Notes: generated from the sequence alone by a model not told the origin. Positions 1 to 15,793 are shown, numbered from the stretch's first letter. The stretch: DNA of 64,000 nt from an uncultured Clostridia bacterium (GCA_946627565.1 CAMOVR010000002.1:16854-80853), one strand, 5' to 3'. A program made the numbers and translations.

Positions 1-576
1 TATAAGAACAGCTTTTTTCATTTCCGGGGCGCTCCGGCCATCTCCACGGCCCGGGCGGGAAATGTTATAGGGGGCGGGGACTTTGCCCGGGACCGGATTA
101 TTCCGGACTGTATCCGTGCCGCCCTTGCGGGCCGGCCGATCCGGCTGCGCAACCCTCATTCCATCCGGCCCTATCAGCATGTGCTGGAGCCGGTCATGGC
201 CTATCTGATGCTGGCCAGGGCCCAGATGGAAGATCCGGAAAAGGCCGACTGGTACAATGTGGGGCCGGATGAAGAAAACTGTGTCACCACAGGCACGCTG
301 GCGGACCTGTTTGTCCGCTGCTGGGGAGAAGGAAGCTCATGGATCTCTGAGGCGGAAGCCAATGCCGTGCATGAGGCGTCCTATCTTAAGCTTGACAGCA
401 CCAGAATCCGGGAAAGCATTCCGTGGGAACCTGTGTGGTCCGTGGAAAAGGCTGTGCAGGAGACGGTTAAGTGGACCCGGGCATGGCAGCGGGGAGAGAA
501 TGTATTCAGGGAAATGGAGCGCGAGATACAGCTCTATGTTTCGGATTGGAAGGCAGAAAATGGAAAAGCACTTTAA
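1..576 (+). CDS. rfbG: CDP-glucose 4,6-dehydratase, C-terminal part (5' end outside window)
   Basis: Frame 1 is open from nt 1. The translation (..TARAGNVIGGGDFARDRIIPDCIRAA..IRPYQHVLEPVMAYLMLA..) matches the conserved C-terminal half of CDP-glucose 4,6-dehydratases. The stop at 574-576 overlaps the next gene's start. Confidence 0.85.
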   Translation, partial: YKNSFFHFRGAPAISTARAGNVIGGGDFARDRIIPDCIRAALAGRPIRLRNPHSIRPYQHVLEPVMAYLMLARAQMEDPEKADWYNVGPDEENCVTTGTLADLFVRCWGEGSSWISEAEANAVHEASYLKLDSTRIRESIPWEPVWSVEKAVQETVKWTRAWQRGENVFREMEREIQLYVSDWKAENGKAL

Positions 577-1906
577 CAGTGAGGCGGAAGCCAGGGAAGA
601 GATCCGCGCCATGGTGGCGGCATATTATCATCAGTTCAGGGAACCGAAAAAAGCCTTTGAACCCGGCGACAGGATTGCCTATGCATCCCGTGTGTATGAT
701 GAAAAGGAAATGTGTTCCCTCACCGACGCCATGCTGGACTTCTGGCTTACGTCAGGCAGGTTTGCGGAACAGTTTGAAAAGGATTTTGCTGCGTTTCTGG
801 GGGTCCCCTTTGTGCATCTGGTCAACTCCGGTTCTTCGGCCAACCTGCTGGCCTTTATGGTATTGACGGCGCCGGAGCTTGGAGAGAGAAGGATACGGCC
901 CGGGGATGAGGTCATCACGGTGGCCTGCGGGTTTCCCACCACCATTGCACCCATCCTGCAGTACGGGGCCGTGCCGGTGTTTCTGGATGTGACGGTGCCC
1001 CAGTACAACCTGGACGTGTCCCAGCTGGAGGCGGCCCTTACGGAAAAGACAAAGGCTGTCATGCTGGCCCACACCCTGGGCAATCCCTTTGACCTGAAGG
1101 CTGTGCGCGACTTCTGCCGGAAACATCAGCTGTTCCTGGTGGAGGACAACTGTGATGCCCTGGGCAGCCGGTACACCATAGACGGGGAGACCAGATACAC
1201 CGGGACATGGGGGGACATTGGAACCAGCAGTTTCTATCCGCCCCATCACATGACCATGGGGGAGGGCGGCGCTGTCTATACCCGGGATCCGCTTCTTCAC
1301 CGCCTGATCCTTTCCTACAGGGACTGGGGCAGGGACTGCATCTGCCCCTCCGGCCGGGACGATACCTGCGGGCACCGCTACGATGGCCAGTTCGGCCAGC
1401 TTCCTGCCGGGTATGACCATAAGTATGTGTACAGCCATATGGGCTATAACCTGAAGGCCACGGACCTGCAGGCATCCATAGGCTGCGAGCAGCTGAAAAA
1501 GATGCCCGGCTTTATCCGCCGCAGGCAGGAAAACTGGGAGCGGCTTCACCGTGCCCTGTCGGATCTTACGGACGTCCTGATCCTGCCGGAGCGGGCACCG
1601 GGGTCTGATCCCAGCTGGTTCGGTTTCCTGATTACCCTGAAGCCGTCCTCCGGCCTTTCAAGAGAAAACGTGGTGAGAAAGATCGAAAGCCGGAACATCC
1701 AGACCAGGATGCTCTTTTCCGGGAACATGACCCGGCATCCCGCCTTTGATACCATCCGGGGCACGGATGCCTACCGGGTGGTGGGGGATCTTGCGGTGAC
1801 GGACATGATCATGCGCCAGACCTTCTGGGTGGGGGTATACCCTGGCATGACCGATGAAATGCTGGATTATATGGCCGGCGTGATCCACGAAAGCGTGAGG
1901 GCATGA
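560..1906 (+). CDS. rfbH: CDP-4-keto-6-deoxy-D-glucose 3-dehydrase (E1; DegT/DnrJ/EryC1 fold)
   Basis: ATG at 560 (MEKHFNSEAEAREEI..) lies inside ORF 257..1906; the upstream part of that ORF overlaps rfbG out of frame. Family-typical motifs are LVNSGSSANL, FYPPHHMTMGEGG and the Cys/His-rich stretch RDWGRDCICPSGRDDTCGHRYD, typical of RfbH/DdhC/AscC. Confidence 0.9.
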   Translation: MEKHFNSEAEAREEIRAMVAAYYHQFREPKKAFEPGDRIAYASRVYDEKEMCSLTDAMLDFWLTSGRFAEQFEKDFAAFLGVPFVHLVNSGSSANLLAFMVLTAPELGERRIRPGDEVITVACGFPTTIAPILQYGAVPVFLDVTVPQYNLDVSQLEAALTEKTKAVMLAHTLGNPFDLKAVRDFCRKHQLFLVEDNCDALGSRYTIDGETRYTGTWGDIGTSSFYPPHHMTMGEGGAVYTRDPLLHRLILSYRDWGRDCICPSGRDDTCGHRYDGQFGQLPAGYDHKYVYSHMGYNLKATDLQASIGCEQLKKMPGFIRRRQENWERLHRALSDLTDVLILPERAPGSDPSWFGFLITLKPSSGLSRENVVRKIESRNIQTRMLFSGNMTRHPAFDTIRGTDAYRVVGDLAVTDMIMRQTFWVGVYPGMTDEMLDYMAGVIHESVRA

Positions 1907-2418
1907 AGAATTTCATAAACCGCCTGATGGAAAGGCTGGAAAACTCGCCTCTTGCCCCGTTCATGCAGTTCATCCGGTTCGGCCTGGTGGGCTTTACCAG
2001 CACACTGGTATCCTACGGCATCGAAATGCTGATGTACTATGTGGTTTTCAGGGATACGGTCTTTTCCGCCCTGGAGCCGGTCCCGGGCTTAAGGCTGTCT
2101 GCAGACCAGGTCCGGGTTATGGCGGTGAACATCGTTGCCTTTGTCATCTCGGTCACCTATTCCTATATGATGAACAGCCGTTTTACCTTCCGCTCAGAGG
2201 AGAAAAGGACTTTTGCCCAGCATCTCCGCTCTTATCTTAAGACGGTGGCCAGCTATGCCTTCACGGGTCTTCTGCTGGCACCGGCCATCAAGATGGGCCT
2301 GAGCGGGATGGGCGTGCCCTACTATGCGGCCAGCCTGTTATCCCTGCTTGTGACCATACCCCTCAATTATGTGCTCAATAAATTCTGGGCCTTCCGCCAG
2401 ACGGGGTCCGGGGCATAA
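1903..2418 (+). CDS. GtrA-family membrane protein (putative polyprenyl-phosphate-sugar flippase component)
   Basis: 171 aa with 4 predicted TM helices. It carries the GtrA signature ends (FIRFGLVGFTSTLVSY.. and ..LNYVLNKFWAFR). ATGA overlap with the rfbH stop. Confidence 0.8.
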   Translation: MKNFINRLMERLENSPLAPFMQFIRFGLVGFTSTLVSYGIEMLMYYVVFRDTVFSALEPVPGLRLSADQVRVMAVNIVAFVISVTYSYMMNSRFTFRSEEKRTFAQHLRSYLKTVASYAFTGLLLAPAIKMGLSGMGVPYYAASLLSLLVTIPLNYVLNKFWAFRQTGSGA

Positions 2419-2457
2419 AACAGAACTCCCTGCATTGCAGGGAGTTCTGTTTTATGC
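2413..2457. terminator. bidirectional intrinsic terminator between convergent GtrA-like and GT2 genes
   Basis: Near-perfect palindrome gcataaaacagaactccctgca/tgcagggagttctgttttatgc. A/T runs on both flanks give a U-tract in either orientation. Confidence 0.75.
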
Positions 2458-2458
2458 C

Positions 2459-3409
2459 TTATTCATCCGGGGATACGTCAAAGTTGATCCGCTCTTCTTC
2501 CACCACCAGGGGCCGGTTCATGATGCGCTGGTTCATGCTGAGAATGTATTCTCCGATGATCCCCAGGAAGATCAGCTGAACGGCGCCCAGGAAAAACATG
2601 CCGATGACAATGGGCGCGGTACCGGCTTCAAACCCGTACCAGTTGCTGAGCTTGAGGATCAGATAGATCAGGGCCACCAGCAGGCTGACGGCGGCGATGC
2701 ATACCCCAAGGATGGTGGCGAGGCGCAGCCCCACCTTGGTGTAGGAAGTGAAGCTCAGCATGGCGGCGTCATAGAGGGTATACCAGTTGTTGTGGGTTTT
2801 TCCTGCCCGGCGCTTTTCCTGATGGTAGGGGATGATTTTGATTTTGCATCCCAGTTCTGCCACCACACCCCGGAGGAAGGGGATAGGGTCATGCAGGTCC
2901 CGCATGACATTGACAAAGGAGCGGTCATACAGGCCAAAACCGGTGAAATGCTCAATCTGCTCCACGTCCGAGTACTTATGGATCAGCTTGTAGTAGCCGC
3001 TGCGCAGCAGGTACATGAGCTTTCCCTCGTCGCTGGAGTTTTTCTGCATCACCACGATTTTCGTGCCCTGCTCCCACTCCCGCACCATAACCGGAATCAT
3101 GGAGATGGGCTCCTGAAAATCGCAGCACATCATGATGGTACAGTCCCCGGTGGTCTGCAGGATGCCGTAATAGGGAGAGCGGAACTGTCCGAAATTCCTG
3201 GCGTTGAAAATGGCCCGGATGTGCCTGTCCTTTTCGCACAGCTGCCTGAGCAGAGCCCGGGTCCCGTCAGTGGAACGGTTGTCAATAAAGAGGATTTCAT
3301 AGGAATAGGAAGACAGCTGGGTGCGGAAAAGCTCGGTGAGCTGTTCCGCCATGGGCACCACATTTTCCTGCTCGTTAAAGCAGGGAATCATGACACTGAT
3401 CTTGCTCAT
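2459..3409 (-). CDS. family-2 glycosyltransferase, GtrB/DPM1-like (polyprenyl-phosphate sugar synthase type)
   Basis: 316 aa. The N-terminal GT-A domain reads SVMIPCFNEQENV..IDNRSTDGT. Two C-terminal TM helices (..ATILGVCIAAVSLLVALIYLIL.., ..IVIGMFFLGAVQLIFLGIIGEY..) are characteristic of GtrB/CsbB-type enzymes. Confidence 0.85.
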   Translation of the reverse strand: MSKISVMIPCFNEQENVVPMAEQLTELFRTQLSSYSYEILFIDNRSTDGTRALLRQLCEKDRHIRAIFNARNFGQFRSPYYGILQTTGDCTIMMCCDFQEPISMIPVMVREWEQGTKIVVMQKNSSDEGKLMYLLRSGYYKLIHKYSDVEQIEHFTGFGLYDRSFVNVMRDLHDPIPFLRGVVAELGCKIKIIPYHQEKRRAGKTHNNWYTLYDAAMLSFTSYTKVGLRLATILGVCIAAVSLLVALIYLILKLSNWYGFEAGTAPIVIGMFFLGAVQLIFLGIIGEYILSMNQRIMNRPLVVEEERINFDVSPDE

Positions 3410-3511
3410 ATTGATCTCCGTGCCGGTACATGTCCGGCTGAAACAGACTTGCGCAGATGGTTTTCATTATGCGGGAATATTACCCGTCCTGCGGCAGTTT
3501 AAGGTATGCTG

Positions 3512-4417
3512 TCAGCTGCGGGCTTCCGCCCGGGCTTTCAGGATTTCCCGGATACCCTCCCGGAACGTGACCTGAGGCACAAAGCCGGTGGCCTTCAGGG
3601 TTTTTCCCATATCCACCTCAAGCCCCGCATGTCCGCAGTCCGAGGGGTCAAAGGTGCAGCGGGCCCCGCCGTATTCCTCACAGAGGGTTTCTATATACTC
3701 CTTCAGGGGGATGGATTCCGGATGGGCAATGCAGTACAGGCCGTCCTCCACCGGCAGGGCTCCCAGCAGATAGTACAGTCTCCCTGCATCGGATTCGTGC
3801 AGGTAGTTCCAGATCTGGGTGCCGGATGTGAAGTGCACGGTTTCACCCCGGTCAAGACGGTCCAGGGTGTCATTGATCATGGTGCCGCTGTTGTCATTGA
3901 CACCGTAAACACTGAAGGCCCTGGCCCAGATATGGTGCATCCCGTACTGTTCACACTGCCGGCGGGTCAGCATGCAGGCGGCAAGCTTGGCCATGCCGTA
4001 GGCGATGACGGGTTCCGGTTTGGTCTCCTCGGAAATGATGCCGGAGACAGGCCCGTACTCCGCCTGGGATCCTGCCCCGATGAACCGGCTGCAGCCAAGC
4101 CTTTTTGCCAGGTCCACCGCGTCCAGGGACCAGGGAATGTTCCGCTGGCACAGACGCGGGACATCCCGCTCGCTGCGGATGGTGTAGTCCCAGGCCAGAT
4201 GATAGAACGTATCGTAGGGGCCGCCGTCCCCCTTCACGCTGTTTAAGGCACTGAGGGAGACGGTTTCCACCCGGAGAAGATCCGAGACGGGCAGTCTGGT
4301 CATGCGTCGGGTACCCTCCCGCACCAGGGCCAGCACGGAGCAGCCGTTTTTCAGGCATTCCCTTATCAGGGCGACCCCGATCATGCTGGTGGCGCCGGTG
4401 ACAACCACTTTCTTCAT
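3512..4417 (-). CDS. NAD(P)-dependent extended SDR (sugar 4-ketoreductase/epimerase type; RfbS/RfbJ/YerF-like)
   Basis: 301 aa. Rossmann motif VVVTGATSMIGVAL and catalytic YGMAK (YxxxK). ATGA overlap with the upstream ThDP-enzyme gene. Confidence 0.8.
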   Translation of the reverse strand: MKKVVVTGATSMIGVALIRECLKNGCSVLALVREGTRRMTRLPVSDLLRVETVSLSALNSVKGDGGPYDTFYHLAWDYTIRSERDVPRLCQRNIPWSLDAVDLAKRLGCSRFIGAGSQAEYGPVSGIISEETKPEPVIAYGMAKLAACMLTRRQCEQYGMHHIWARAFSVYGVNDNSGTMINDTLDRLDRGETVHFTSGTQIWNYLHESDAGRLYYLLGALPVEDGLYCIAHPESIPLKEYIETLCEEYGGARCTFDPSDCGHAGLEVDMGKTLKATGFVPQVTFREGIREILKARAEARS

Positions 4418-6207
4418 TTGCTGTCTTCACGCTCCGCAATCATGTTCTTTCTGTATTCATCCCGGTTAAGGAAGGGGAACATGTCGCTGTATTCGTGGGC
4501 CACCAGGCGGCCGTCAGGCATCTTTTCTGAGGTAATCCTGGGCACCAGGGCCTGCCACTGGGGCGTCATGACTTCGCAGATGACGGGGCCTTCCGTTTCA
4601 AAGACACGGCGCACAGTCTCATCGATCTCATCCACGCTGCTGATCCTGTAAAAGGGGATCTCATAGGCTGCGGCGATCTTCTCAAGATCCGGGCACCAGA
4701 CACCGGAATCCGGTCCTTCTCCCAGAAAACGGTCCTCCATGAAGTTTCTCTGGGTGGAGCGGATCAGCAGATAGCCGTTGTTGTTCAGCACAAAGGTCTT
4801 GATGGGAAGACGGTTGTAATGGATCGGGGCAAACTCCTGGATGTTCATCTGCAGGCTGCCGTCACCTGTGATGACCACGGTATCCTTCCGGCCGTTAGCC
4901 ACACAGGCGCCAATGCCTGCGCACCAGTAGCCCATGGAGCTGATGCCCCCCGTTGTCAGGAACTGCTGGCCCCGCTTGACCTTCCAGGTCTGGCATGCTA
5001 CGTGGAAACAGGAACCCGTATCCACAAGGATATTGGCATTATCCGGGGAAAGCGCGGAGAGGCGGTCGATGAAATAATAGGAATTGACGGGCTTTTCATC
5101 TTTGTATGAGGGCTGCACCACGGGATAATGCTCTTTCCAGAAGGCACACTGCTGTACCCATTCCGGGCAGGGCGGCAGGGGGGATGCGGAAATGCGTTTG
5201 GCCAGCTCTGCAATCACGTCCCTGCAGTCCAGATGGACTTTCTCATCTATGACCACGCCGGGCTTGTCCAGCTCCTCCTGATCGATGTCCACCACGATTT
5301 TGTATGCATGCTTCCCGAAGGATTCGGGGGAATGGCCCACCAGAGAGGAGGCCAGGCGGCAGCCCAGGGAGATGATCAGGTCAGCATTCTGGATGGCAAA
5401 GTTGGCGGAACGCTCCCCATAGTTGCCGGGCCGCCCCACATACAGAGGATGGCTGCTTTCAATCAGGTCAATGCCAAGCCTTGCGGTGATCACCGGAATG
5501 CCGGCAGCCTCCACCAGATCCCTGAAAAGGCCCCGGGCGCCGGACAGGCTGACACCCTGTCCCGCCAGAAAAACGGGCCGCTTTGCTTTTTTCAGGTGGT
5601 CCACCATGGAGGAAACGGCAGCATCCAGGCGGTATGTATCGTTATATTTGGGGGGAAGGGGATGCCGGACCTGGTTTTCCGGCACTTCTGCCCGCTGGAT
5701 ATCCAGGGGCACGTCGATCCAGACAGGGCCTGGCCTGCCGCCGGTGGCGGCTTCCCAGGCTTCCTCCAGGTAAGCCTGGACACGGTTTACCTGGTCGATG
5801 GTCTTAAAGTATTTGACCAGCCCTTCCACCATGGAACGGATGTTGATGCCCTGAATGCCGAACTGGCGGATATTTGTCTTCTCTTCGTACTGGACAAAGG
5901 ACAGGTTGGCCTGGCCTGAAAGGACGATCATGGGGGAAGAATCGGTATAGGCGCCCACCACACCGTTCATGGCATTGACACTGCCGGGGCCTGCTGTTAC
6001 CAGGGCAATGGCGGGCTTGTTCCGGATGCGCCCGTAGGCGTCGGCGCTCATGGTGCAGGCCTGCTCGTGGTGGTGGCAGATGATGCTGTAGTGCCCGTTC
6101 CTGCCCACGGCATCATCCAGGTACATGGCCTGTCCGCCGGTGACCATGAAGACGGCTTCCACACCCTTCTTATGGAAGAAGTCAAAAATGTATTCCGAGA
6201 CGTTCAT
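4414..6207 (-). CDS. thiamine-diphosphate-dependent enzyme, acetolactate-synthase large-subunit fold (YerE-like candidate)
   Basis: 597 aa. The N-terminal Pyr domain reads VFMVTGGQAMYLDDA..HHHEQACTMSADAYGR..VTAGPGSVNAMNG. The C-terminal PP domain has the ThDP/Mg motif ITGDGSLQMNIQEF...NNNGY. GGAGGA RBS upstream. Confidence 0.85.
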   Translation of the reverse strand: MNVSEYIFDFFHKKGVEAVFMVTGGQAMYLDDAVGRNGHYSIICHHHEQACTMSADAYGRIRNKPAIALVTAGPGSVNAMNGVVGAYTDSSPMIVLSGQANLSFVQYEEKTNIRQFGIQGINIRSMVEGLVKYFKTIDQVNRVQAYLEEAWEAATGGRPGPVWIDVPLDIQRAEVPENQVRHPLPPKYNDTYRLDAAVSSMVDHLKKAKRPVFLAGQGVSLSGARGLFRDLVEAAGIPVITARLGIDLIESSHPLYVGRPGNYGERSANFAIQNADLIISLGCRLASSLVGHSPESFGKHAYKIVVDIDQEELDKPGVVIDEKVHLDCRDVIAELAKRISASPLPPCPEWVQQCAFWKEHYPVVQPSYKDEKPVNSYYFIDRLSALSPDNANILVDTGSCFHVACQTWKVKRGQQFLTTGGISSMGYWCAGIGACVANGRKDTVVITGDGSLQMNIQEFAPIHYNRLPIKTFVLNNNGYLLIRSTQRNFMEDRFLGEGPDSGVWCPDLEKIAAAYEIPFYRISSVDEIDETVRRVFETEGPVICEVMTPQWQALVPRITSEKMPDGRLVAHEYSDMFPFLNRDEYRKNMIAEREDSK

Positions 6208-6225
6208 ATCTTCCGTCCTCCGTTC

Positions 6226-7269
6226 TTATGTGAGGGATTCAAGCATATAGGATTCCGTATCTCCGTGGACCGGGCGGGACAGCTCTTCTGCCACGGCCAC
6301 CACCATGTCCTCCTGTCCGCCCACCACTTTCCGCCGTCCAAGCTCCATAAAGATATCCCGCGGATCCACATGGAATTCTCCGGCGGCTGCCAGAACCTGG
6401 GTTTTAAAGGAGGAAAACACGCCAGCCATGCCGCTGACGATGCTCACGTCCGTCAGTGCCCTGTCCTCGGGCATGACCGGGCGGACAAGCTTTTCGCTGA
6501 CATCCATCATGGCATACAGATCCTGGCGGAGTTCATATCCTTCCCGGATCAGCAGGGCAGAGAGGGCTTCCAGCTGCACGTTTCCGGCACCGGCACCGAA
6601 CCCCCGGAGGGTTCCGTCGATGATGCGGGCGCCTTCCTGAATGGCGGTATAGGCATTGCCCACAGCCAGGCCCATGTTGTTGTGGGGATGAAATCCCACC
6701 AGCACGTAGAGGTGTTCCACCAGGGTTCCTATGCTGCGCCTGACCATCTCCGGGGTGGAGGCGCCGGCACTGTCCATGAGGATAACGCCCTGGGCGCCGT
6801 AGGACTGCATCTTCTGCGCCTCCTCCAGAAGACGCTCTGTGGAGGTCATGTGATAGTTCATCAGGACCCCGTAGACTTCCTTGCCCTCCCTGCGGAGGTA
6901 TTCAATATGCTGCCGGGTGGTGTCGGCTTCCGTGCAGTGGCAGCCCAGCTTGAAAAGTTCCACCCCGTCCTCCATGGCCGGGATCAGGTTATCCCGTATG
7001 GTGCCAAAGCCGGGGATCATATAGGCGCCCAGCCGGGTATGCTTCAGGCACCTGCGGGCGGTTGAGAGCATGTCATGGTCAGAGAGCAGGGAACGGCCCA
7101 CCTGCAGGGAGGAGGCCCCCAGTCCGTTGCCGTGTCCCACCACAATGGTGTACATGCCGGCCTGGTCCATGGCTTCACAGTAACTGGAAATGAATTCCCC
7201 GGTCAGCTGATGGCGCACCGCATGGGAGCCGTCCCGGAGGGTGGCGTCAAAGAAGCGGATTTTGCTCAT
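6226..7269 (-). CDS. 4-hydroxy-2-oxovalerate aldolase (DmpG/BphI family)
   Basis: 347 aa. The N-terminus IRFFDATLRDGSHAVRHQ, the metal-site region VGFHPHNNMGLAVGN and the C-terminal DmpG communication domain are all present. ATGA overlap with the upstream dehydrogenase gene. Confidence 0.9.
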   Translation of the reverse strand: MSKIRFFDATLRDGSHAVRHQLTGEFISSYCEAMDQAGMYTIVVGHGNGLGASSLQVGRSLLSDHDMLSTARRCLKHTRLGAYMIPGFGTIRDNLIPAMEDGVELFKLGCHCTEADTTRQHIEYLRREGKEVYGVLMNYHMTSTERLLEEAQKMQSYGAQGVILMDSAGASTPEMVRRSIGTLVEHLYVLVGFHPHNNMGLAVGNAYTAIQEGARIIDGTLRGFGAGAGNVQLEALSALLIREGYELRQDLYAMMDVSEKLVRPVMPEDRALTDVSIVSGMAGVFSSFKTQVLAAAGEFHVDPRDIFMELGRRKVVGGQEDMVVAVAEELSRPVHGDTESYMLESLT

Positions 7270-8132
7270 AACAGCCTCCTTCTGGCGTAGCTCTCGGCAA
7301 TCTCCACGGCGGCACAGGTGATGATGTCAAGGTTGCCGGCATAAGCGGGGAGAAAATCCCCTGAGCCGGTTACTTCAATGGTGGTGGTGACGCGGCCGTT
7401 TTCCAGAATCGGCCCCAGTACAACCCTGTAGCCGGGCACATACCGCTTAAGTTCTGTTTCCACCCGATGAATGGCCCTGCGGATCAGATCCATATCCGGA
7501 TCATCGATCAGGGCATAGACGGTATTGCGCATGGTAATGGGGGGCTCTGCCGGGTTCAGGATGATGATGGCCTTGGCGTCCCTGCATCCGCCCAGCTCTA
7601 TCAGGGCGTCCTTGGTGGTCTGGGTGAATTCGTCGATATTGTTCCTTGTCCCTGCCCCGGCGGATTTGGAAGAGATGGTGGCCACCACCTCCAGGTATTT
7701 TACATCCGCCACCTGCGTCAGGGCCCGGGCGATGGGTACCGTTGCCTGTCCGCCGCAGGTCACACAGTTGACATTGGGCAGGTCCATGGCCTGATCAAGG
7801 TTCACCTGGGGAACGCAGAACGGCCCCACGTGGGCGGGGGTAAGGTCGATGGCGTATTTGCCCAGCCTTTTCAGAATGGGCGCGTGCTCCGCGTGCACCT
7901 TTGCCGAGGTGGCGTCAAAGACAATCTCGCAGCAGTCGGGATACTTTTCTATATAGCGTATGGAATCGCAGGTGACGGGGACACCCAGTTCCCTTGCCCG
8001 GGCAATGCCCTTGGAGTCCGGATTCTGTCCTGCGAAGATCCCGCACGAAATCACATCGGACCGGAGAATTTTCATCAGAAGATCGGTCCCGATGTTCCCT
8101 GTACCCAGGATGCCAGCTCGTACTTTTTCCAT
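7266..8132 (-). CDS. acetaldehyde dehydrogenase (acetylating) (DmpF/BphJ family)
   Basis: Start taken at the ATG at 8132 (MEKVRAGILGTGNIGTDL..), preceded by AAAGGA. The longer ORF reaching 8231 runs into the predicted promoter. Catalytic Cys context is NCVTCGGQATVP. Confidence 0.88.
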   Translation of the reverse strand: MEKVRAGILGTGNIGTDLLMKILRSDVISCGIFAGQNPDSKGIARARELGVPVTCDSIRYIEKYPDCCEIVFDATSAKVHAEHAPILKRLGKYAIDLTPAHVGPFCVPQVNLDQAMDLPNVNCVTCGGQATVPIARALTQVADVKYLEVVATISSKSAGAGTRNNIDEFTQTTKDALIELGGCRDAKAIIILNPAEPPITMRNTVYALIDDPDMDLIRRAIHRVETELKRYVPGYRVVLGPILENGRVTTTIEVTGSGDFLPAYAGNLDIITCAAVEIAESYARRRLL

Positions 8133-8219
8133 CTTGATCCTTTCGCCCTGCGCTCTGATATGCCGCAGGGGCTCCCTGACAAGGAAGCCCCTGGAAATGC
8201 GCAACTGAGCCCGAGGGGG

Positions 8220-8248
8220 ATTATAGAGCATACTTGAGCCCTTTTCAA
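8220..8248 (-). promoter_or_regulatory. sigma-A-type promoter for the aldehyde-DH/aldolase/ThDP/SDR operon
   Basis: On the minus strand: TTGAAA - 17 nt - TATAAT, about 85 nt upstream of the ATG at 8132. Confidence 0.55.
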
Positions 8249-8269
8249 GGAGCCGGATGCTGTATCATA

Positions 8270-8298
8270 TTGACGCCGCGGGCATGAAAAGGTAAGAT
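8270..8298 (+). promoter_or_regulatory. sigma-A-type promoter for lon
   Basis: TTGACG - 17 nt - TAAGAT, followed by a GGAGG RBS (8316-8320) and the ATG at 8327. Confidence 0.5.
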
Positions 8299-8326
8299 AT
8301 GCCGCGATTGAATATGGAGGCTTACT

Positions 8327-10636
8327 ATGAGACTGATTCCCATTCGCTGTACGGCGCTTCTGCCCGATACCACAGTCTATCTGCATACAAGTGAACTGCT
8401 CCTGGCAAAGGATGAGAAAATGCCGGAAAAGGGGGAGCAGGTCCTGCTGGTCCCCATGAAGGCCGGAGAAACAGTCTTTGAACCGGAAAGGGCAGAGGAG
8501 CTGCTTTTCCCCATCGGTGTGGTGGGCGCACCTGCCGAATGCCTGTTCCAGGATTACATGGCCTTTGCCACGGATGAGCGGATCATCTGGTCAAATCTGA
8601 CTTCCCAGGGGGATATGTTTGAAGCGGATTTCATGCCCGTTGAGGATACGGATCCTCTGGAACCCTTCGTGGCCGGCATGCGGTATGCCAGGCTCCTGGA
8701 TGCCTTTGCTTCCTTCCTGGATGAAATGCCGGCCGGGGACATGATCAAGCAGCGCATCCTTCCGGGACTGAAATCGGTGGCGGACCTTTTCTGCGTGCTG
8801 ACCGTGTGGCTTAACTGGCAGGGGGAGGACATGGAGTACCTTCTCAATGAGAGCAGTGAAACCAGACGTGTGGACAAGATGGAAGGCATGCTGCAGGAAA
8901 CCATTGCGTCCCTGCGGCTGAGCCATGCCGGCGCCGTGGAGAGGGAAACGGAGAATATCCGCCAGTACCGGGAAGCGGCCATCCGCAAACAGATTTCCTT
9001 CCTGGAAAAGCAGCTGGATGAGCTGCATCCGGAGGCCATATCGGATATACGGCTGTTTGAAAAGCGCCTGGAAGAGAGCGGCATGAACGAGACCGCCATG
9101 AAGGAAGCCCGCCGGGTACTGGCCAGGCTCAAGCAGGAGAACGAACACAGCGCAGAGTATGGTCTTCTGACGGACTATATGGATTTTGTCACGTCCCTGG
9201 ACTGGAAGGAGACGCCCTACGTCCCTGTCAATCTGGAAGAGGCGGAGAAAATCCTGGACCGGGACCACTATGGCCTGAAGGAGGCCAAGCGGCGGGTGGT
9301 GGAACAGATTGCGGTGATGAACCTTACCGGACATGTGTCCGGCTCCATCCTGCTGTTTGTGGGCAGCCCGGGTACGGGCAAGACCAGCATCGGCAGAAGT
9401 GTGGCGGAGGCCATGGGACGCAAGTATGTCCGGGTGTCCCTGGGCGGCGTCCGGGATGAAGCTGACATCCGCGGCCACCGGCGCACCTATATCGGTGCCA
9501 TGCCGGGGCGCATCATGGATGCCATCCATAAATGCGGGGACAATCATCCGGTCATGGTGCTGGATGAAGTGGACAAGCTGTGCGCATCCGTGCAGGGAGA
9601 CCCCGCCAGCGCCCTGCTGGAGGTTCTGGATCCGGAGCAGAACAATACCTTTACGGACCACTACATGAATGTGCCCTATGACCTCTCCCATGTGTTCTTT
9701 ATCTGCACGGCCAATACCACCACTTCCATTCCCGAGCCCCTGCTCAACCGTATGGAGGTGATCCGTTTCCCGGGGTATACGGCCGTGGAGAAGCGGGAGA
9801 TCGGGGAAAGACATCTGCTACCCAGAGCACGGGAAGCTGTGGGCCTGAAGGAAGAAAACCTGACATTGGGTGCCGGGGTCATGGACCAGATCATAGCGGA
9901 ATATACGGCGGAAGCCGGCGTCCGGGCCCTGCGCAAGCGCCTGGATGCCCTGTGCCGGCAGGCTGCCGTCAGGAGCTGGAAACAGAAGGGAAAGGCCCTG
10001 CGGATCACAAAGCGGAATCTTTCCAGCTTCCTTGAGGGTCATCCGATCCATCATGTCCGGGTGCCTGAGAGCCAGAGGAGCGGTGTGGTGACCGGGCTTG
10101 CCTGGACAGCAGCGGGCGGTGACATTCTGTTCATTGAAACCGCCCTTATGGAGGGTAAGGAGCAGGTGCTTCTGACAGGCCAGCTGGGGGATGTCATGAA
10201 GGAATCCGCCAGGATTGCCCTGAGTCTGGTGCAGATCCTGCTGCCGGAGCATGCAGGGAAACTGCGGGACCATGTGGTGCATGTGCATGTACCGGCCGGC
10301 AGTGTGCCCAAGGACGGACCCAGTGCAGGCATTACCATGACCACAGCTCTGGCATCCCTTCTGACGGGCAGGCCTGTGGACCCGGCCCTGGCCATGACAG
10401 GGGAAATCTCCCTGAGGGGCGATGTGACCGCCATAGGCGGGCTGCCGGAAAAGCTCATGGCAGCGGTCCGGGCGGGCGTTACCAGGGTCCTGATTCCCGA
10501 AGAGAACAAAGAGGACCTGGAGGATGTGCCGGATGAGGTACGCAGGCAGCTTGACATCATTCCAGTGAAAACCATCCAGGAAGTCCTGGGTATCGCCGGC
10601 ATTCTGGAAAGCGGAGACAGCGCCCAGAAACAGTAA
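8327..10636 (+). CDS. lon: ATP-dependent Lon protease (endopeptidase La)
   Basis: 769 aa with an N-terminal LON substrate-binding domain, Walker A GSPGTGKTS, Walker B VMVLDEVDK, and a protease domain with VPKDGPSAGITMTTAL (catalytic Ser). Confidence 0.95.
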   Translation: MRLIPIRCTALLPDTTVYLHTSELLLAKDEKMPEKGEQVLLVPMKAGETVFEPERAEELLFPIGVVGAPAECLFQDYMAFATDERIIWSNLTSQGDMFEADFMPVEDTDPLEPFVAGMRYARLLDAFASFLDEMPAGDMIKQRILPGLKSVADLFCVLTVWLNWQGEDMEYLLNESSETRRVDKMEGMLQETIASLRLSHAGAVERETENIRQYREAAIRKQISFLEKQLDELHPEAISDIRLFEKRLEESGMNETAMKEARRVLARLKQENEHSAEYGLLTDYMDFVTSLDWKETPYVPVNLEEAEKILDRDHYGLKEAKRRVVEQIAVMNLTGHVSGSILLFVGSPGTGKTSIGRSVAEAMGRKYVRVSLGGVRDEADIRGHRRTYIGAMPGRIMDAIHKCGDNHPVMVLDEVDKLCASVQGDPASALLEVLDPEQNNTFTDHYMNVPYDLSHVFFICTANTTTSIPEPLLNRMEVIRFPGYTAVEKREIGERHLLPRAREAVGLKEENLTLGAGVMDQIIAEYTAEAGVRALRKRLDALCRQAAVRSWKQKGKALRITKRNLSSFLEGHPIHHVRVPESQRSGVVTGLAWTAAGGDILFIETALMEGKEQVLLTGQLGDVMKESARIALSLVQILLPEHAGKLRDHVVHVHVPAGSVPKDGPSAGITMTTALASLLTGRPVDPALAMTGEISLRGDVTAIGGLPEKLMAAVRAGVTRVLIPEENKEDLEDVPDEVRRQLDIIPVKTIQEVLGIAGILESGDSAQKQ

Positions 10637-10651
10637 ATGTCGGGTTTGGAA

Positions 10652-10681
10652 CAGAAGAAGGCTGTTTTCCTGCCTTTTCTG
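10652..10681 (+). terminator. possible terminator after lon (weak)
   Basis: Imperfect hairpin cagaagaaggc..gccttttctg with one bulge. The T-tract is short and partly inside the stem. Confidence 0.3.
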
Positions 10682-10853
10682 CTGACATGTACCGCAGAAC
10701 CCGTATACTTCTGTTCAGCCGGGGTAAAACCCGGGAGAGAAAACGCTCAGATCATGGGCGCCGTCTGAGATGGCTGCCGGAGTCAGAATGGTCTGCTGCT
10801 GTCTGATGGTATCTGATGAAATACAACGCGATCTGCTTGAGAAAGGAAATGTT

Positions 10854-11597
10854 ATGATCAGACTGGAGCATGTCAGCAAAGTGTACGGAAACAGTGACAG
10901 GAAAGCACTGAACGATCTTTCCATGGAAGTGCCGGGGGGCTGTGTCTATGGATTCCTGGGCCCGAACGGCGCAGGCAAGACCACAGCCATCCGTCTTATC
11001 ACCGGGGTGCTGAAGCCCACGGAGGGGCGGATCCTGGTGGACGGAATCGACGTGGCGGAAAATCCCCTGGAAGTCAAACGCCGCATCGGCTTTGTCCCGG
11101 ACTCCCAGGAAATGTATGAAAAACTCACCGGCATGGAGTACCTGAATTTCATGGCGGACATCTTCGGTGTCAGCGTGAAGGACAGGAAGGAGAGGGCAGA
11201 AAAGTATCTGGCCACCTTTGAACTGGAGAGTGCAGCCGGACAGAGAATCCAGGGCTATTCCCGCGGCATGAAGCAGAAGCTGGCGGTGATCGGGGCCCTG
11301 ATCCATGATCCCGCGGTATGGATCCTGGACGAACCCATGGTGGGCCTGGACCCCAGGGCATCCTTCCTGCTGAAGGAGGAACTGCGGGCAAGGGCGGAGG
11401 CAGGCGTCACCGTCTTCTTCTCCACCCATGTACTGGAGGTGGCGGAGCGGCTGTGCGACCGGGTGAGCATCATCAATCATGGACACCTGATCGCTGAGGG
11501 TACGCCGGAGGAACTCCGCAGCGGTGAGCATGCCGCATCCCTGGAAGAACTGTTCCTTGAGCTTACGGAGGATTCGGAGGAAGGTGAAGGCGCATGA
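10854..11597 (+). CDS. ABC transporter ATP-binding protein
   Basis: ATG at 10854 (MIRLEHVSKVY..) after AAAGGA. Walker A GPNGAGKTT, signature YSRGMKQKL, Walker B VWILDEP. Overlaps the permease gene start (ATGA). Confidence 0.92.
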   Translation: MIRLEHVSKVYGNSDRKALNDLSMEVPGGCVYGFLGPNGAGKTTAIRLITGVLKPTEGRILVDGIDVAENPLEVKRRIGFVPDSQEMYEKLTGMEYLNFMADIFGVSVKDRKERAEKYLATFELESAAGQRIQGYSRGMKQKLAVIGALIHDPAVWILDEPMVGLDPRASFLLKEELRARAEAGVTVFFSTHVLEVAERLCDRVSIINHGHLIAEGTPEELRSGEHAASLEELFLELTEDSEEGEGA

Positions 11598-13240
11598 GGA
11601 ATTACAGGATTCTCACTGCCTTCCAGCTGAAGAACATGCTCTATTCCATGAACCCCTTTGATTCCATCGGGAAAAAGGGGAAAGCCAGGTACCGGGGCAT
11701 CCTGGTATGCCTGCTGCTGATCATGGCGGTGGGAAGTGTGGTTTTCCTGGAATTTGAAATGAATCAGGTGCTCTCTACGATACGCCAGCAGGCCATTTTA
11801 CCGGGACTTGCCCTGATGATCTGTATGATGTCCACCCTGGTGCTGGGCCTGTTCCAGTGTCTTTCCGAACTCTATCAGGGGCGGGATGCTGTTTTCCTGT
11901 CCGTGCTGCCCCTTTCGTCCAGACAGATTCTGACGGCAAGGCTGGCCACGCTGTATGTGTCGGAACTGGCCATAAATGCCGTCCTTCTGATGCCCGCCAC
12001 GGTTCTGTACGCCCTGAGCACGGACGAGGCGGTCACCGTTATCCTCCGGGGCCTGCTGGTGGTCCTGTTCTCCCCGGCGATACCCCTGGCGGTGGTGTCC
12101 CTTATCTCGTATTTCCTGATGCGGATCTCCGGCTTTGCAAAACACAGGGAAACCATCACCATGGCTCTGAGCCTGGTTCTGGCCATAGCCTGGTCCGTGT
12201 TTGTCACCCTCAACAACAGTTCAAATGACGAACAGATGTCTTCCCTGGTTATGCTCCTTCTTAAGGAAAACGGGCTGCTGCAGATGCTCACCAGCCGTAT
12301 CCCGCCGGTGCGCTGGGGCGCGGAGGGAATCTGCGGGAATGTGCCGCTGTGCCTTCTGTTTGTGGGAGTATCCTGTCTGGCCATGCTTCTTCCCATCTTT
12401 GTCTGCGGCCCCGGTTATCTGGAACAGGCGCTGAGCCTGACAGAGCAGACCATGACGACAAAGAGCAGGAAGATCCGGCAGACGGACTGGAAGGAATCCT
12501 CCCGCTTCATGGCCCAGTACATGCTGGAATGGCGCATGATCCTCAGAACGCCGGCCTGGATGATGAACTCCCTGATGGGCGTCATCATGTTCCCCCTGAT
12601 GATCGGCATAGGTGTGATTGCAGGGGTCAGCAACAATGCGGGCCCTGAGATGATGACACAGCTGCAGGAAATCACCCGGAATGCGGACCAGGGCTGGGTT
12701 CTGCTGATCGGCATTGCGGTGATCTGCATGGGCTGCATGGTCAATCCTGCCGTGGCCACGGCGTATTCCCGGGAGGGCGGCCGCTTCAGTGCTGCGCTGA
12801 CATGGCCGATCCTGGAAAGGACCAGGATGCATGCCAAACTGGCCATGGGTCTTTCCGTGAATCTGCTGTGCGGTTTCATGATTGCCTGCGTGAACTTTTT
12901 CACCGTGCGGGCTCCGCTTCTCACCGTTGCAGGGGCCTTTGTGATGGCTCAGCTCATAGGTCTTGCCACATCCGCCTTTTCCCTGCTTATTGATATGTGC
13001 TACCCCCGCCTGAGCTATATCAACGAAATGCAGGCCATAAAGCAGAACATGCATGTGGGCCTGTCCATGGCCATCTGGCTGGTATGCGTCATCCTGGCCG
13101 GTGTGCCCGTCATCTGGACCTGGAATCTTGGCGGCATGGCCGCTGCAGGCATAACCTGCGGGGTGATTGTGCTGGAAAGCGCAGTTTCCATGGTGCTTCT
13201 GGAACGGGCTGCCGCAAAGCCCCGTTACCTTCCTGACTGA
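11594..13240 (+). CDS. multi-pass membrane protein, putative ABC exporter permease
   Basis: 548 aa with about 12 hydrophobic segments, translationally coupled to the ATPase gene. Family assignment rests on context only. Confidence 0.7.
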   Translation: MRNYRILTAFQLKNMLYSMNPFDSIGKKGKARYRGILVCLLLIMAVGSVVFLEFEMNQVLSTIRQQAILPGLALMICMMSTLVLGLFQCLSELYQGRDAVFLSVLPLSSRQILTARLATLYVSELAINAVLLMPATVLYALSTDEAVTVILRGLLVVLFSPAIPLAVVSLISYFLMRISGFAKHRETITMALSLVLAIAWSVFVTLNNSSNDEQMSSLVMLLLKENGLLQMLTSRIPPVRWGAEGICGNVPLCLLFVGVSCLAMLLPIFVCGPGYLEQALSLTEQTMTTKSRKIRQTDWKESSRFMAQYMLEWRMILRTPAWMMNSLMGVIMFPLMIGIGVIAGVSNNAGPEMMTQLQEITRNADQGWVLLIGIAVICMGCMVNPAVATAYSREGGRFSAALTWPILERTRMHAKLAMGLSVNLLCGFMIACVNFFTVRAPLLTVAGAFVMAQLIGLATSAFSLLIDMCYPRLSYINEMQAIKQNMHVGLSMAIWLVCVILAGVPVIWTWNLGGMAAAGITCGVIVLESAVSMVLLERAAAKPRYLPD

Positions 13241-13281
13241 CATGAAAAAAGCTGCAGATCTCTGCAGCTTTTTTCATGTCA
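13238..13281. terminator. bidirectional intrinsic terminator
   Basis: Perfect 21-nt arms tgacatgaaaaaagctgcaga / tctgcagcttttttcatgtca that include both convergent stop codons. A6/T6 tracts occur on both sides. Confidence 0.8.
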
Positions 13282-14203
13282 GGAGCAGCTGACCCAGCCG
13301 GAGAACCGGGTCCTGCATAAGGTAGTTTCCCCGCATAAGCAGCCCGGGACGGCGCCATTTGGGCTGACGGGGTATTTCCAGAAAACGGTTTACCACATTC
13401 TTCGCTTCATCCGGCAGGGCATTTCCGTAGTATGCAAGAAAGCTTTGGGCCTGGGTGTAGTTTAATAGAATCCTTTTTTTCGCTTTCTCCGGCATGGTCA
13501 GGGCTTTGAGCACACGGCCGGGAATTCCGGAGGTGCTGGCCCCTACAGCATTGTCCCCGTGCTGCCGGTAGCTGACCAGGGGCCGGGGTACAAAGACAAT
13601 GTGTCCGAAGGCTGCTGCGGTCTGGGCAAGGAACCAGTCATGCATGAAGATGCCGCTGTTTTTTGCATGCCGGGACGCCAGCTGCCTGAGGGGCTCGTTG
13701 ATGAGGACGGAACAGCCGGTGACGTTGTTCTGCACCAGGAGATTCTGCAGGGAAGCCGCCTCCGGGTTCCATTTCTGGTGACCGAAGAAACTTTCATGGA
13801 TGGGACTGCCGTCTTCTGAAACCACCCGGAGGTCAGAATGCACCAGGATGGGTGTATCGCTGCCCCACTGAGCCTCAGCCCGGGAAAGAGCCTCCAGACA
13901 GGTTTCCAGTCTGTCCGGCATCCAGATATCATCCTGGTCACACAGGGCTGCCGGTCCCCGGGTCTGCTGCAGCATGCTCAGAAAATTGCCGGGGGCGCCC
14001 AGGTGCTGTCCCTGGTTTGCACCGAAAACCACATTGGGCTGAGAGCCGGCAAAATCTTTCAGGACATCCGCAGAGCTGTCTGTGGAACCGTCATCCTGCA
14101 CCAGAAGCCTGAAGGGCACAGTCTGCCGGCTGAGGGACTGCAGCTGCTCGGGCAGATAGGGGAGCCCGTTATAGACCGCCAGCAGGACGGAGACGTTCAC
14201 CAT
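13274..14203 (-). CDS. family-2 glycosyltransferase
   Basis: MVNVSVLLAVYNGLPYLPEQLQSLSRQT..LLVQDDGSTDSS is a GT-A/DXD-type N-terminus. An alternative ATG lies at 14215. Either start overlaps the upstream GT2 stop at 14197. Confidence 0.85.
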   Translation of the reverse strand: MVNVSVLLAVYNGLPYLPEQLQSLSRQTVPFRLLVQDDGSTDSSADVLKDFAGSQPNVVFGANQGQHLGAPGNFLSMLQQTRGPAALCDQDDIWMPDRLETCLEALSRAEAQWGSDTPILVHSDLRVVSEDGSPIHESFFGHQKWNPEAASLQNLLVQNNVTGCSVLINEPLRQLASRHAKNSGIFMHDWFLAQTAAAFGHIVFVPRPLVSYRQHGDNAVGASTSGIPGRVLKALTMPEKAKKRILLNYTQAQSFLAYYGNALPDEAKNVVNRFLEIPRQPKWRRPGLLMRGNYLMQDPVLRLGQLLLT

Positions 14204-14970
14204 CTGAACCCCCATTTCCAGAAGAACTGCAGGGCGGAGCGGATATGAACCCAGCGCAGATAGGGAGACCTTGCGTCCTCCCGGTTCCAGACATGGGTCA
14301 CATGCATATCCGGATGATAGACCACATGTCCGTACTGAAGGGCCTTCAGCGTCAGGTCACTGTCTTCCAGATAGAGGAAATAGCGCGGATCAAAACCCTG
14401 CATTCTGTTGAGAATATGGCTGCGGACCATCATGAAACAGCCCGTGGCAAATTCCACGTCAATGGGTTCGGTGATCTCCTCATTGCGCATGGTGTACTCG
14501 TCCCGCCAGGTTGTAAAAGGCTTCCCGAACTTTTCCAGGGGGCCGCCCAGGAGATAGCGGACAGTGGGCCTGCGGTGGGGCAGGTGCTGTTCTTCACCGT
14601 TGGGGAAGAAGACCCGGGGAGAGAGAATGATGATGTCGTGATGGGCATCCATATAGTCAGCCATGCGGGAGACCAGATCCGGTTCAAAGGTGATGTCCGG
14701 GTTCAGAATGATATGGTAGGTGGAAGTCAGGTGCGGCAGGACGACATTGTTGGCCCTCCCGTACCCGATGTTCTTTTTCTGAGGGAAAAAGACAGTGGAG
14801 GGGTCCATGTTGTATATGATTTTCTGAACCGTGTCCTGATTGCTGTTGTCCACCACATACAGCCGGATGCGTTCGGTGGAACGGATCAGGCATCCCACGG
14901 AACGCTGGACCGTGGCTGAAGGCGTATTGTACAGGACCATACAGGCGGAAATGCGGGGATCGTCAATCAT
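14197..14970 (-). CDS. family-2 glycosyltransferase (rhamnosyltransferase-like)
   Basis: ATG at 14970 (MIDDPRISACMVLYNTP..VVDNSNQD..) preceded by GGAGG. The longer ORF to 15147 crosses the upstream terminator. Confidence 0.85.
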   Translation of the reverse strand: MIDDPRISACMVLYNTPSATVQRSVGCLIRSTERIRLYVVDNSNQDTVQKIIYNMDPSTVFFPQKKNIGYGRANNVVLPHLTSTYHIILNPDITFEPDLVSRMADYMDAHHDIIILSPRVFFPNGEEQHLPHRRPTVRYLLGGPLEKFGKPFTTWRDEYTMRNEEITEPIDVEFATGCFMMVRSHILNRMQGFDPRYFLYLEDSDLTLKALQYGHVVYHPDMHVTHVWNREDARSPYLRWVHIRSALQFFWKWGFRW

Positions 14971-15083
14971 GGGTAACCTCCAAACAAGGAATCTGATCGG
15001 ACTGCAGATAAAAAAACTGCACTTCAGATAGATTGTAAACTTGGAGCGCATTTTTGACAAGGGAATATCCGTATGCTGCAGAG

Positions 15084-15110
15084 CAAAACCCGCTGCCTTC
15101 CGGCAGCGGG
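15084..15110 (-). terminator. intrinsic terminator after the DUF4956 gene
   Basis: On the minus strand: cccgctgcc-ggaa-ggcagcggg followed by TTTTG, 12 nt after the stop. Confidence 0.7.
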
Positions 15111-15121
15111 CCTTATTGCGT

Positions 15122-15793
15122 TTACAGCTGGGTCTGATTTTCCACATAGGGCAGAACGGAGATCTCCAGATTGCCGTTCCTGGTGCGCAGTTCGTCGATG
15201 AAGGCCTTTTCTTCGGAAGGGTTCTTCATCCGGATCCGGAAGGAGAGACGGAACATGGAGCCCATGCCGGTGGTCTTGACGCCTGCATTTTCCACGCTCT
15301 TCAGATAATGATCAAAGGTGTCCTTGAACACATCGGTGTAATCCAGGGATTCCGGAATGGTGATGCGCAGGAGCTTTTCCCCCATCAGGGAAGCATGGTC
15401 AAAGATCTTAAGGGAAGAGAGGAGAAGGAAGATGAGTCCCAGCACCAGAAGGGAGAGAATGCCATAGGCTACATAGCCCATGCCGAAAGCCACACCGGAA
15501 GCCATGGTGATCAGGATGGTGGCGATTTCATCGGAAGTACCCTGGGCGGAACGGAAGCGGATCAGGGCAAAGGCACCGCCGAAGGCCACGCCGGCACCGA
15601 TGTTGCCGTTGACGAAGGTCAGTACCATGCCCACCACAAAGGGAATCAGGGATGTGACGATAAAGAAGCGGCGGTTTGCCCGGATCCGGAAGGAGGCCAG
15701 ATAGGAAAAGAGTACACCGGAGAAAAGGGATGCGCATGCCATGATAAAGAACTGGGTGGGTGTAACGCTAAGGGAATAAATGGAATCGAACAT
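15122..15793 (-). CDS. DUF4956-family membrane protein
   Basis: 223 aa. The N-terminal multi-TM part includes the conserved-looking FALIRFRSA segment and is followed by a ~90-aa soluble C-terminal domain. It sits immediately downstream of a VTC-domain gene, as is usual for this family. Confidence 0.75.
   Translation of the reverse strand: MFDSIYSLSVTPTQFFIMACASLFSGVLFSYLASFRIRANRRFFIVTSLIPFVVGMVLTFVNGNIGAGVAFGGAFALIRFRSAQGTSDEIATILITMASGVAFGMGYVAYGILSLLVLGLIFLLLSSLKIFDHASLMGEKLLRITIPESLDYTDVFKDTFDHYLKSVENAGVKTTGMGSMFRLSFRIRMKNPSEEKAFIDELRTRNGNLEISVLPYVENQTQL

Follow-up and report, generated by a model that had tools for sequence, protein, structure and literature searches.

A cytidine diphosphate-sugar gene island with a predicted route to an erwiniose-type branched dideoxyhexose in an uncultured Clostridia bacterium

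Here we analyze a nine-gene island at the left end of a 64,000-nucleotide stretch of DNA from an uncultured Clostridia bacterium (GCA_946627565.1, CAMOVR010000002.1:16854-80853; hereafter the window, with positions counted from its first letter). In this island the cytidine diphosphate (CDP)-sugar genes rfbF, rfbG and rfbH and a small gtrA gene face a convergent operon for an acylating acetaldehyde dehydrogenase (ALDH), a class II pyruvate aldolase, a YerE-like enzyme dependent on thiamine diphosphate (ThDP), a short-chain dehydrogenase/reductase (SDR) and a family 2 glycosyltransferase (GT2). Inferring the chemistry of the pathway from the identity of these genes, we consider it likely that the island makes and exports an erwiniose-type sugar, that is, a 3,6-dideoxyhexose with a 1,3-dihydroxybutyl (C4) branch at C-4.

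Layout of the island and its upstream extension

The island reads rfbF-rfbG-rfbH-gtrA on the plus strand against a converging GT2-SDR-ThDP-aldolase-ALDH block on the minus strand, with recD2 and lon as flanks. Most of it lies within the window; rfbF and the 5' part of rfbG fall to the left of nt 1. The features seen in the window are as follows (lengths in amino acids, aa).

1..576, plus strand: rfbG/ddhB, 3' part, CDP-glucose 4,6-dehydratase (TIGR02622, 172 bits, model positions 168-351, the C-terminal half)
560..1906, plus strand: rfbH/ddhC, the E1 enzyme CDP-4-keto-6-deoxyglucose 3-dehydrase, 448 aa (NF011936, 701 bits against a cutoff of 423)
1903..2418, plus strand: GtrA-family small membrane protein, putative flippase for a polyprenyl-phosphate sugar (PF04138 GtrA_DPMS_TM, E 1e-16)
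2412..2458, no strand assigned: hairpin with a perfect 20-bp stem between the convergent operons, read from the sequence
2459..3409, minus strand: GT2 of the GtrB/ArnC/PgfS type, predicted polyprenyl-phosphate glycosyltransferase (PF00535)
3512..4417, minus strand: extended SDR, 301 aa, predicted side-chain ketoreductase and ErwF/YerF analogue (PF01370, E 6e-28)
4414..6207, minus strand: YerE-like ThDP-dependent carboligase, 597 aa, predicted to branch a CDP-4-ketosugar at C-4 (three TPP domains)
6226..7269, minus strand: DmpG/BphI-type class II pyruvate aldolase, 347 aa (TIGR03217, 355 bits against a cutoff of 286; HMGL-like and DmpG_comm domains)
7266..8132, minus strand: DmpF/BphJ-type acylating ALDH, 288 aa, predicted to convert acetyl-coenzyme A (acetyl-CoA) to acetaldehyde (TIGR03215, 403 bits against a cutoff of 282)
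8220..8248, minus strand: sigma-70-type promoter TTGAAA-17-TATAAT of the minus-strand operon (11/12 consensus positions)

Direct reading places ATGA overlaps at the ALDH/aldolase junction (TTATGAGC), at the ThDP/SDR junction (AAATGAAG) and at the end of rfbH, whose stop codon is overlapped by the gtrA ATG (GCATGAAG). The aldolase-ThDP gap is 18 nt long and includes GGAGGA, and 102 nt separate the SDR gene from the GT2 gene. The minus-strand promoter is the top of three promoter-like sites found in 8.7 kb, a number to be read against a mean of 4.0 in shuffled sequence, and the hairpin is probably a bidirectional terminator shared by both operons. rfbH most likely starts at 560, where GGAAGG precedes the ATG, an alternative start lying at 536. 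Scans for tRNA genes and Rfam families returned none in the 64-kb window.

An earlier annotation of this DNA from its letters alone (the sequence-only reading) had named most of these genes and quoted their motifs, the promoter, the ATGA overlaps and both gaps (18 and 102 nt), all of which we confirm by a list of open reading frames (ORFs), Pfam and NCBIfam scans and direct reading. Its list of genes was incomplete, having passed over the GtrA-family gene coupled to rfbH, and it also missed the hairpin; the GT2 gene was listed without further comment, and its family recurs in the same operons of relatives. One start codon needs correction: because ATG 8231 sits within the -10 hexamer, we place the ALDH start at ATG 8132, which is preceded by GAAAGGA, yields 288 aa and agrees with the alignment to solved homologues.

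The left end of the island could be recovered from a metagenome scaffold in ENA (L081), found by an exact-sequence look-up of the aldolase; the same look-up with the ThDP protein gave no match. L081 is 99.99% identical to window positions 1-17269, except for a 100-N scaffold gap at the hairpin, and reaches 3.9 kb further left. It carries a full-length rfbG (368 aa; TIGR02622, 423 bits against a cutoff of 278) that begins ~530 nt left of the window, as well as rfbF, the glucose-1-phosphate cytidylyltransferase gene (TIGR02623, 371 bits against a cutoff of 300), with a promoter-like site, TTGACA-17-TAGAGT with TG ahead of its second hexamer, just upstream of it. The sequence-only reading had presumed that rfbF and an E3 reductase would both lie upstream of nt 1; rfbF does, and no E3 was found in the 3.9 kb shown by L081, the next genes to the left being those of a RecD2 helicase and then an OGG glycosylase.

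RfbH matches the Yersinia E1 enzyme (PDB 3bcx, E 5.5e-149) and keeps its His-His motif, PPHHMT. In addition, Cys198 and a C-X-C-X7-C pattern align to the Yersinia E1 cysteines that serve as [2Fe-2S] ligands. Judged by its sequence, RfbH is a genuine E1-type enzyme, and because the iron-sulfur motif of E1 appears to be kept it should still need an electron donor.

Recurrence of the module and character of its enzymes

Relatives were sought in 185,579 species genomes, one per species, and the best 80 loci of 449 matches were kept; their neighbours were analyzed by tblastn together with all-against-all ORF clustering. Relatives of the ThDP protein with no less than 66% identity to it make up at least 120 distinct clusters (defined at 90% identity), few of them named and those mostly Lachnospiraceae or Eubacteriales. 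In 53 of the 80 loci, the ALDH, aldolase and ThDP genes are immediate neighbours that share one strand and follow the same order, and these module loci span Clostridia, Negativicutes, Erysipelotrichaceae, Elusimicrobia, Patescibacteria, Melainabacteria, Planctomycetes, Spirochaetes, Fibrobacteres-like and gammaproteobacterial genomes. Where flanks were long (26 module loci with at least 7 kb upstream and at least 5 kb downstream), an rfbG-family SDR is present without exception (26/26), rfbH in 23, rfbF, rfbG and rfbH together in 22, and a GtrB-type GT2 in 16. The usual order is rfbF-rfbG-rfbH-(gtrA)-ALDH-aldolase-ThDP-reductase-GT2 on a single strand (e.g., L008 and L013), relative to which the five-gene block of the window is inverted, and the reductase slot is filled in relatives by several divergent Epimerase-family SDRs. 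The only other recurrent families are reductases, gtrA, an FkbM methyltransferase (some loci) and split transketolase genes (4 loci); ORF clustering found no ilv, hydratase, hydrolase or dioxygenase (meta-cleavage) family to be recurrent across the 80 loci.

The split transketolase genes, encoding N- and C-terminal subunits, lie between rfbH or rfbG and the ALDH gene (L011, L019, L021 and L043), and would give these sugar operons a further ThDP enzyme.

We assign the host to an uncultured member of the Clostridia because the nearest named relatives of Lon (window 8327-10636) come from Clostridia metagenome-assembled genomes (MAGs; 75%), followed by Lachnospiraceae and Oscillospiraceae MAGs at ~55%. 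Proteins in MAGs labelled Roseburia, Ruminococcus or Lachnospiraceae share 82-84% identity with the ThDP protein of the island, and this far stronger conservation than that of Lon hints that the island has spread laterally among gut Clostridia.

The ThDP enzyme scores below the cutoff of every acetolactate synthase (ALS) model, the top one reaching 322 bits against 538. Its closest solved relative is JanthE (PDB 8rph; 417 bits, E 1.6e-123), a YerE-like, ketone-accepting carboligase that accepts pyruvate, longer donors and 4-hydroxy-2-oxovalerate, with PpYerE and the acetolactate synthases at 253 bits or less; identity amounts to 36% over 590 residues for JanthE and 31% for PpYerE. The catalytic Glu is present as Glu48 in HHEQA, and GDG stands at 448-450. 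Downstream, the SDR has its motifs TGATSMIG at 7-14 and YGMAK at 140-144. In a neighbour-joining tree built without support values, the aldolase-linked ThDP enzymes form one clade that includes the window enzyme, its two apparent exceptions being contigs that end at the ThDP gene; a sister clade at 44-49% identity retains rfbH and is without aldolase and ALDH, and both JanthE and PpYerE fall outside the two clades. The position of JanthE Tyr297, a residue suggested to contact the donor, is His in 50 of 55 aldolase-linked members and Tyr in all 12 sister-clade members, a further and weaker correlate.

The sister-clade loci (L052, L054-L062, L065 and L066, with ~10 kb on each side) come mostly from Lachnospiraceae-labelled genomes and carry, in place of the aldolase and ALDH, a radical-SAM-like protein, an FkbM-type methyltransferase and an aldo-keto-reductase-like protein, all named by sequence motifs. 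This clade probably makes a different branched sugar. In L037 (Gastranaerophilales) there are three ThDP paralogues, at ~3297, 6122 and 10001, only one of which adjoins the aldolase pair.

The aldolase aligns to DmpG (1nvm) with an E value of 3.9e-69 and 38% identity, and retains the catalytic Arg12, Asp13 and His16 as well as the metal-binding His194 and His196. It differs from the catabolic enzymes at the pair of residues that governs stereochemistry in BphI: Tyr83 occupies the Leu87 site and Phe285 the Tyr290 site. This is a general property of the sugar-linked aldolases, in which the Tyr290 site (DmpG-291) is Phe in 44 of 44 and the Leu87 site (DmpG-88) is Tyr, Phe or His in 43 of 44, while Leu and Tyr occupy the two sites in each of the four catabolic aldolases with solved structures. 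BphI is strictly 4S-specific, and the double mutants L87W/Y290F and L87N/Y290F turn it from 4S to 4R (PMC3962088). Because both BphI stereocontrol residues are replaced here (Leu87 by Tyr, Tyr290 by Phe), the sugar-linked aldolases are predicted to make (4R)-4-hydroxy-2-oxopentanoate, the enantiomer used by the erwiniose enzyme ErwE. The partner ALDH matches PDB 7z3s (E 6e-94) and DmpF (1nvm_B, E 5e-74), and its Cys126 in VTCGGQAT aligns with ITCGGQAT.

At the far end of the operon, the GT2 can be aligned along its full length with both GtrB of Synechocystis (5eke, E 2.7e-38, residues 3-305) and ArnC (E 1e-25); among NCBIfam models it reaches 162 bits for PgfS and 101 bits for ArnC, each under its cutoff. 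The GT2 family recurs in 27 of the 53 module loci, mostly on the same strand and just downstream of the ThDP or reductase gene, and gtrA directly follows rfbH in L008, L012, L013 and L014 as well. Genes for GT-C enzymes flank the module in several relatives, of the YfhO type in L003, L008 and L063 and GtrII-like in L013. This context suggests that the sugar is moved from CDP to polyprenyl phosphate, flipped, and attached outside the membrane, which is the least secure step of our proposal.

Elsewhere in the window, two tandem GT2 genes (13274-15147, minus strand) lie 5 kb from the island, past lon and an ABC transporter pair, followed at 15122-24191 (minus strand) by genes for a VTC-domain protein, a DUF4956 protein, a protein with a histidine-kinase-like ATPase domain, and a Cthe_2159 carbohydrate-binding protein, and by an ORF of 1501 aa that matches nothing in Pfam. 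Between 40589 and 56720 there are GH20, a GH43+GH28 fusion, GH123 and a phosphoglucomutase-family (PGM/PMM) gene, a set that fits a glycan-degrading gut organism.

Proposed pathway and competing explanations

The closest published precedent is the erwiniose cluster of Pectobacterium atrosepticum SCRI1043, in which the acetaldehyde dehydrogenase ErwJ, the BphI-like aldolase ErwI, the ThDP enzyme ErwE and the reductase ErwF are encoded alongside genes for CDP-4-keto-3,6-dideoxyglucose (Steitz et al. 2022, PMC9306805). Its authors propose that acetyl-CoA is converted to acetaldehyde, which undergoes aldol addition to pyruvate, followed by ThDP-dependent branching and reduction; ErwE takes 4-hydroxy-2-oxopentanoate (49% conversion, 1R,4R product) and rejects pyruvate (PMC9306805).

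We propose a similar course for the island. RfbF, RfbG and RfbH would convert glucose-1-phosphate to CDP-4-keto-3,6-dideoxyglucose; since no E3 was found nearby, a general carrier would have to reduce RfbH, and a ferredoxin, a flavodoxin or some reductase might serve as electron donor. The ALDH would supply acetaldehyde from acetyl-CoA for the partner aldolase, which would condense it with pyruvate to 4-hydroxy-2-oxopentanoate, with 4R configuration predicted. The YerE-like enzyme would then decarboxylate this 2-oxoacid and add a 3-hydroxybutanoyl unit to the C-4 ketone of the sugar, and the SDR would reduce the new side-chain ketone. Finally, the GtrB-type GT2 could transfer the sugar from CDP to undecaprenyl phosphate for GtrA to flip, after which some GT-C enzyme would attach it to a cell-envelope polymer. 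Up to the SDR reduction, the sugar-making steps would thus mirror the published ErwJ/I/E/F scheme, and the lipid-carrier step would be an addition particular to this proposal.

Several observations weigh against this reconstruction. The best 80 of the 449 matches include no Pectobacterium locus, and the lineage may be only distantly related to ErwE; the neighbour-joining tree that defines the aldolase-linked clade has no support values, and the order of the Pectobacterium accessions (E, F, J, I) suggests a gene order different from the J-I-E-F of the window. The aldehyde could be longer than acetaldehyde, an alternative taken up below. As to the electron donor, a search of all ORFs for a plant-type ferredoxin motif together with flavin adenine dinucleotide (FAD) and nicotinamide adenine dinucleotide (NAD) motifs found no E3 reductase in the island, in the 3.9 kb upstream or in the other 56 kb of the window, although a divergent E3 could escape a search by motif; at the 80 loci, motif search and family clustering, as distinct from a profile search, likewise found none within 10 kb. 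The lipid-carrier step faces two objections of its own. No GT-C enzyme of the GtrC/YfhO type was found in the 64-kb window, and we know of no GtrB-type enzyme that uses a CDP-sugar, the donors known to us being uridine diphosphate (UDP)- and guanosine diphosphate (GDP)-sugars.

Four recurrent families of small ORFs (f17, f18, f38 and f39) were considered as hidden redox partners and rejected, all being antisense ORFs inside the ThDP or aldolase genes.

Perhaps the same architecture builds a longer branch, the ALDH reducing propionyl- or butyryl-CoA and the ThDP enzyme receiving 4-hydroxy-2-oxohexanoate or -heptanoate, to give five or six carbons at C-4. Both acyl-CoAs are abundant in gut Clostridia, ErwE converts 4-hydroxy-2-oxohexanoate in vitro to 76% as compared with 49% for the pentanoate (PMC9306805, Table 1), and BphI accepts propionaldehyde (PMC3962088). 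The aldolase pocket can be read in either direction: its chain-length gate, Leu89 in BphI, is Ile in 44 of 44 sugar-linked aldolases and Leu87 is replaced, yet Ile is about the size of Leu, only the smaller residue of L89A opened BphI to C4-C6 aldehydes (PMC3962088), and the bulk of a Tyr or Phe at 87 would be expected to make the pocket narrower, not wider. Given also that the ALDH passes the acetaldehyde dehydrogenase equivalog model, and that erwiniose, the sole known natural product of this enzyme set, has a C4 branch, we think a longer branch unlikely.

Still less probable, in our estimate, is that the ThDP enzyme is simply an orthologue of YerE, attaching a C2 acetyl branch from pyruvate, as in yersiniose, with the ALDH and aldolase being accessory or extending the branch afterwards. 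YerE, the founder of the subclass, does use pyruvate, and JanthE, the closest solved relative, takes it besides longer donors. Against this stand the identity to PpYerE of only 31% and the distribution of the pair itself: in 53 loci the module does not vary and its genes are translationally coupled, and the sister clade that lacks the pair still has rfbH. Moreover, for ErwE the order in which the aldolase acts after branching was tested and rejected, pyruvate not being accepted (PMC9306805).

That the minus-strand cassette has nothing to do with the CDP-sugar genes, and serves as a catabolic DmpFG pair or an acetolactate- or acetoin-type ThDP pathway, is very improbable and largely refuted by synteny: the aldolase and ALDH do pass NCBIfam equivalogs built on catabolic enzymes and the top NCBIfam matches of the ThDP enzyme are acetolactate synthase models, but those models lie far under their cutoffs and JanthE scores well above any ALS, the module keeps company with rfbF, rfbG and rfbH in 22 of 26 long-flank loci across many phyla and with no recurrent hydratase, hydrolase, dioxygenase or ilv family, and the aldolase is missing the Leu/Tyr pair of the solved catabolic enzymes.

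The erwiniose-type C4 branch is close to what the sequence-only reading had put forward. Its mechanism, with YerE/YerF-like branching and reduction and a DmpF/DmpG pair running in the condensing direction to 4-hydroxy-2-oxovalerate, is supported by all of the computed context, including the two computational points on which it had offered itself for refutation: the ThDP enzyme does not group with the acetolactate synthases, and in relatives the cassette accompanies CDP-sugar genes in place of ilv or meta-cleavage genes. Its remark that it knew of no sugar-nucleotide pathway with a DmpG/DmpF pair was outdated, the erwiniose scheme having been published (Steitz et al. 2022, PMC9306805). That mechanism is probably the right explanation of the island and the best of those considered, yet it rediscovers a known kind of pathway. 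A more specific combination, in which an ALDH-aldolase-ThDP lineage separate from Pectobacterium ErwE is joined to E3-free reduction of E1 by general anaerobic carriers, a naturally 4R-specific aldolase and GtrB transfer to undecaprenyl phosphate, is one that we advance tentatively and regard as rather doubtful in its entirety.

Branched 3,6-dideoxy sugars, which are rare surface antigens, have been reported in proteobacterial, mycobacterial and spirochaetal envelope glycans. The presence of the module in many gut Clostridia and in little-studied phyla predicts that an erwiniose-like sugar is displayed on their surfaces, which could bear on how gut strains are typed, on phage receptors and on recognition by the immune system. 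For biocatalysis, the locus offers natural ThDP carboligases and aldolases of apparent 4R specificity. The module is also carried by cultured strains, among them Lachnotalea glycerini DSM 28816 (L012), Clostridium gasigenes DSM 12272 (L032), Butyrivibrio sp. WCD3002 (L051) and Lachnospiraceae bacterium ZAX-1 (L007).

Comparison with known systems

The Pectobacterium erwiniose cluster has the same four enzyme types beside rfbF/G/H-type genes and the same logic, a likeness that we draw by enzyme type and from the published description. In addition, the (4R) donor preferred by ErwE is the enantiomer predicted for the window aldolase. Pectobacterium is a gammaproteobacterium, whereas the host of the window belongs to the Clostridia; a motif search found no E3 in the island, where the full CDP-ketosugar set comprises cytidylyltransferase, 4,6-dehydratase, E1 and E3; and its GtrB-type GT2 and GtrA point to lipid-carrier decoration, a route not described for erwiniose in PMC9306805.

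The yersiniose enzymes YerE and YerF (Yersinia pseudotuberculosis; PpYerE, PDB 5ahk) likewise pair an ALS-fold ThDP enzyme acting on CDP-4-keto-3,6-dideoxyglucose with a subsequent reductase. YerE uses pyruvate or 2-oxobutyrate and has no aldolase or ALDH partner, whereas the window enzyme has both. JanthE (Janthinobacterium sp. HH01; PDB 8rph/8rpi/8rpj) shares with the window enzyme a C-terminal tail that is missing from ALS, but has the motif CDG where the window enzyme has the canonical GDG.

With the DmpG/DmpF, BphI/BphJ and HsaF/HsaG complexes of aromatic and steroid catabolism, the window pair has in common the two folds, the DmpG communication domain, the catalytic residues and the ALDH Cys. 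It is set apart from them by the proposed condensing direction, by its sugar operon context and by the replacement of Leu87/Tyr290 with Tyr(Phe)/Phe, as in engineered 4R BphI.

The Gtr-type and CsbB-GtcA-YfhO systems, finally, combine a GtrA-family protein with a full-length GtrB/ArnC-like GT2, and both are present in the window; the cognate GT-C is absent from the window and stands beside the module in some relatives, and the donor here would be a CDP-sugar. If our reconstruction is true, this would be, to our knowledge, the first CDP-sugar-dependent Gtr-type system and the first C-branched 3,6-dideoxyhexose in a Gram-positive envelope.

A search of the literature for this cassette, or for dideoxyhexoses in Firmicutes, returned nothing relevant. 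Set against the systems above, the pathway logic is not new chemistry, having been published in 2022, and the Clostridia are a new host for a known pathway. What is possibly new comprises that host together with the relatives in many phyla, the apparent absence of E3 near the loci, the GtrA/GtrB linkage, and the Tyr/Phe signature of an aldolase that would make, by nature, the enantiomer for which BphI had to be engineered.

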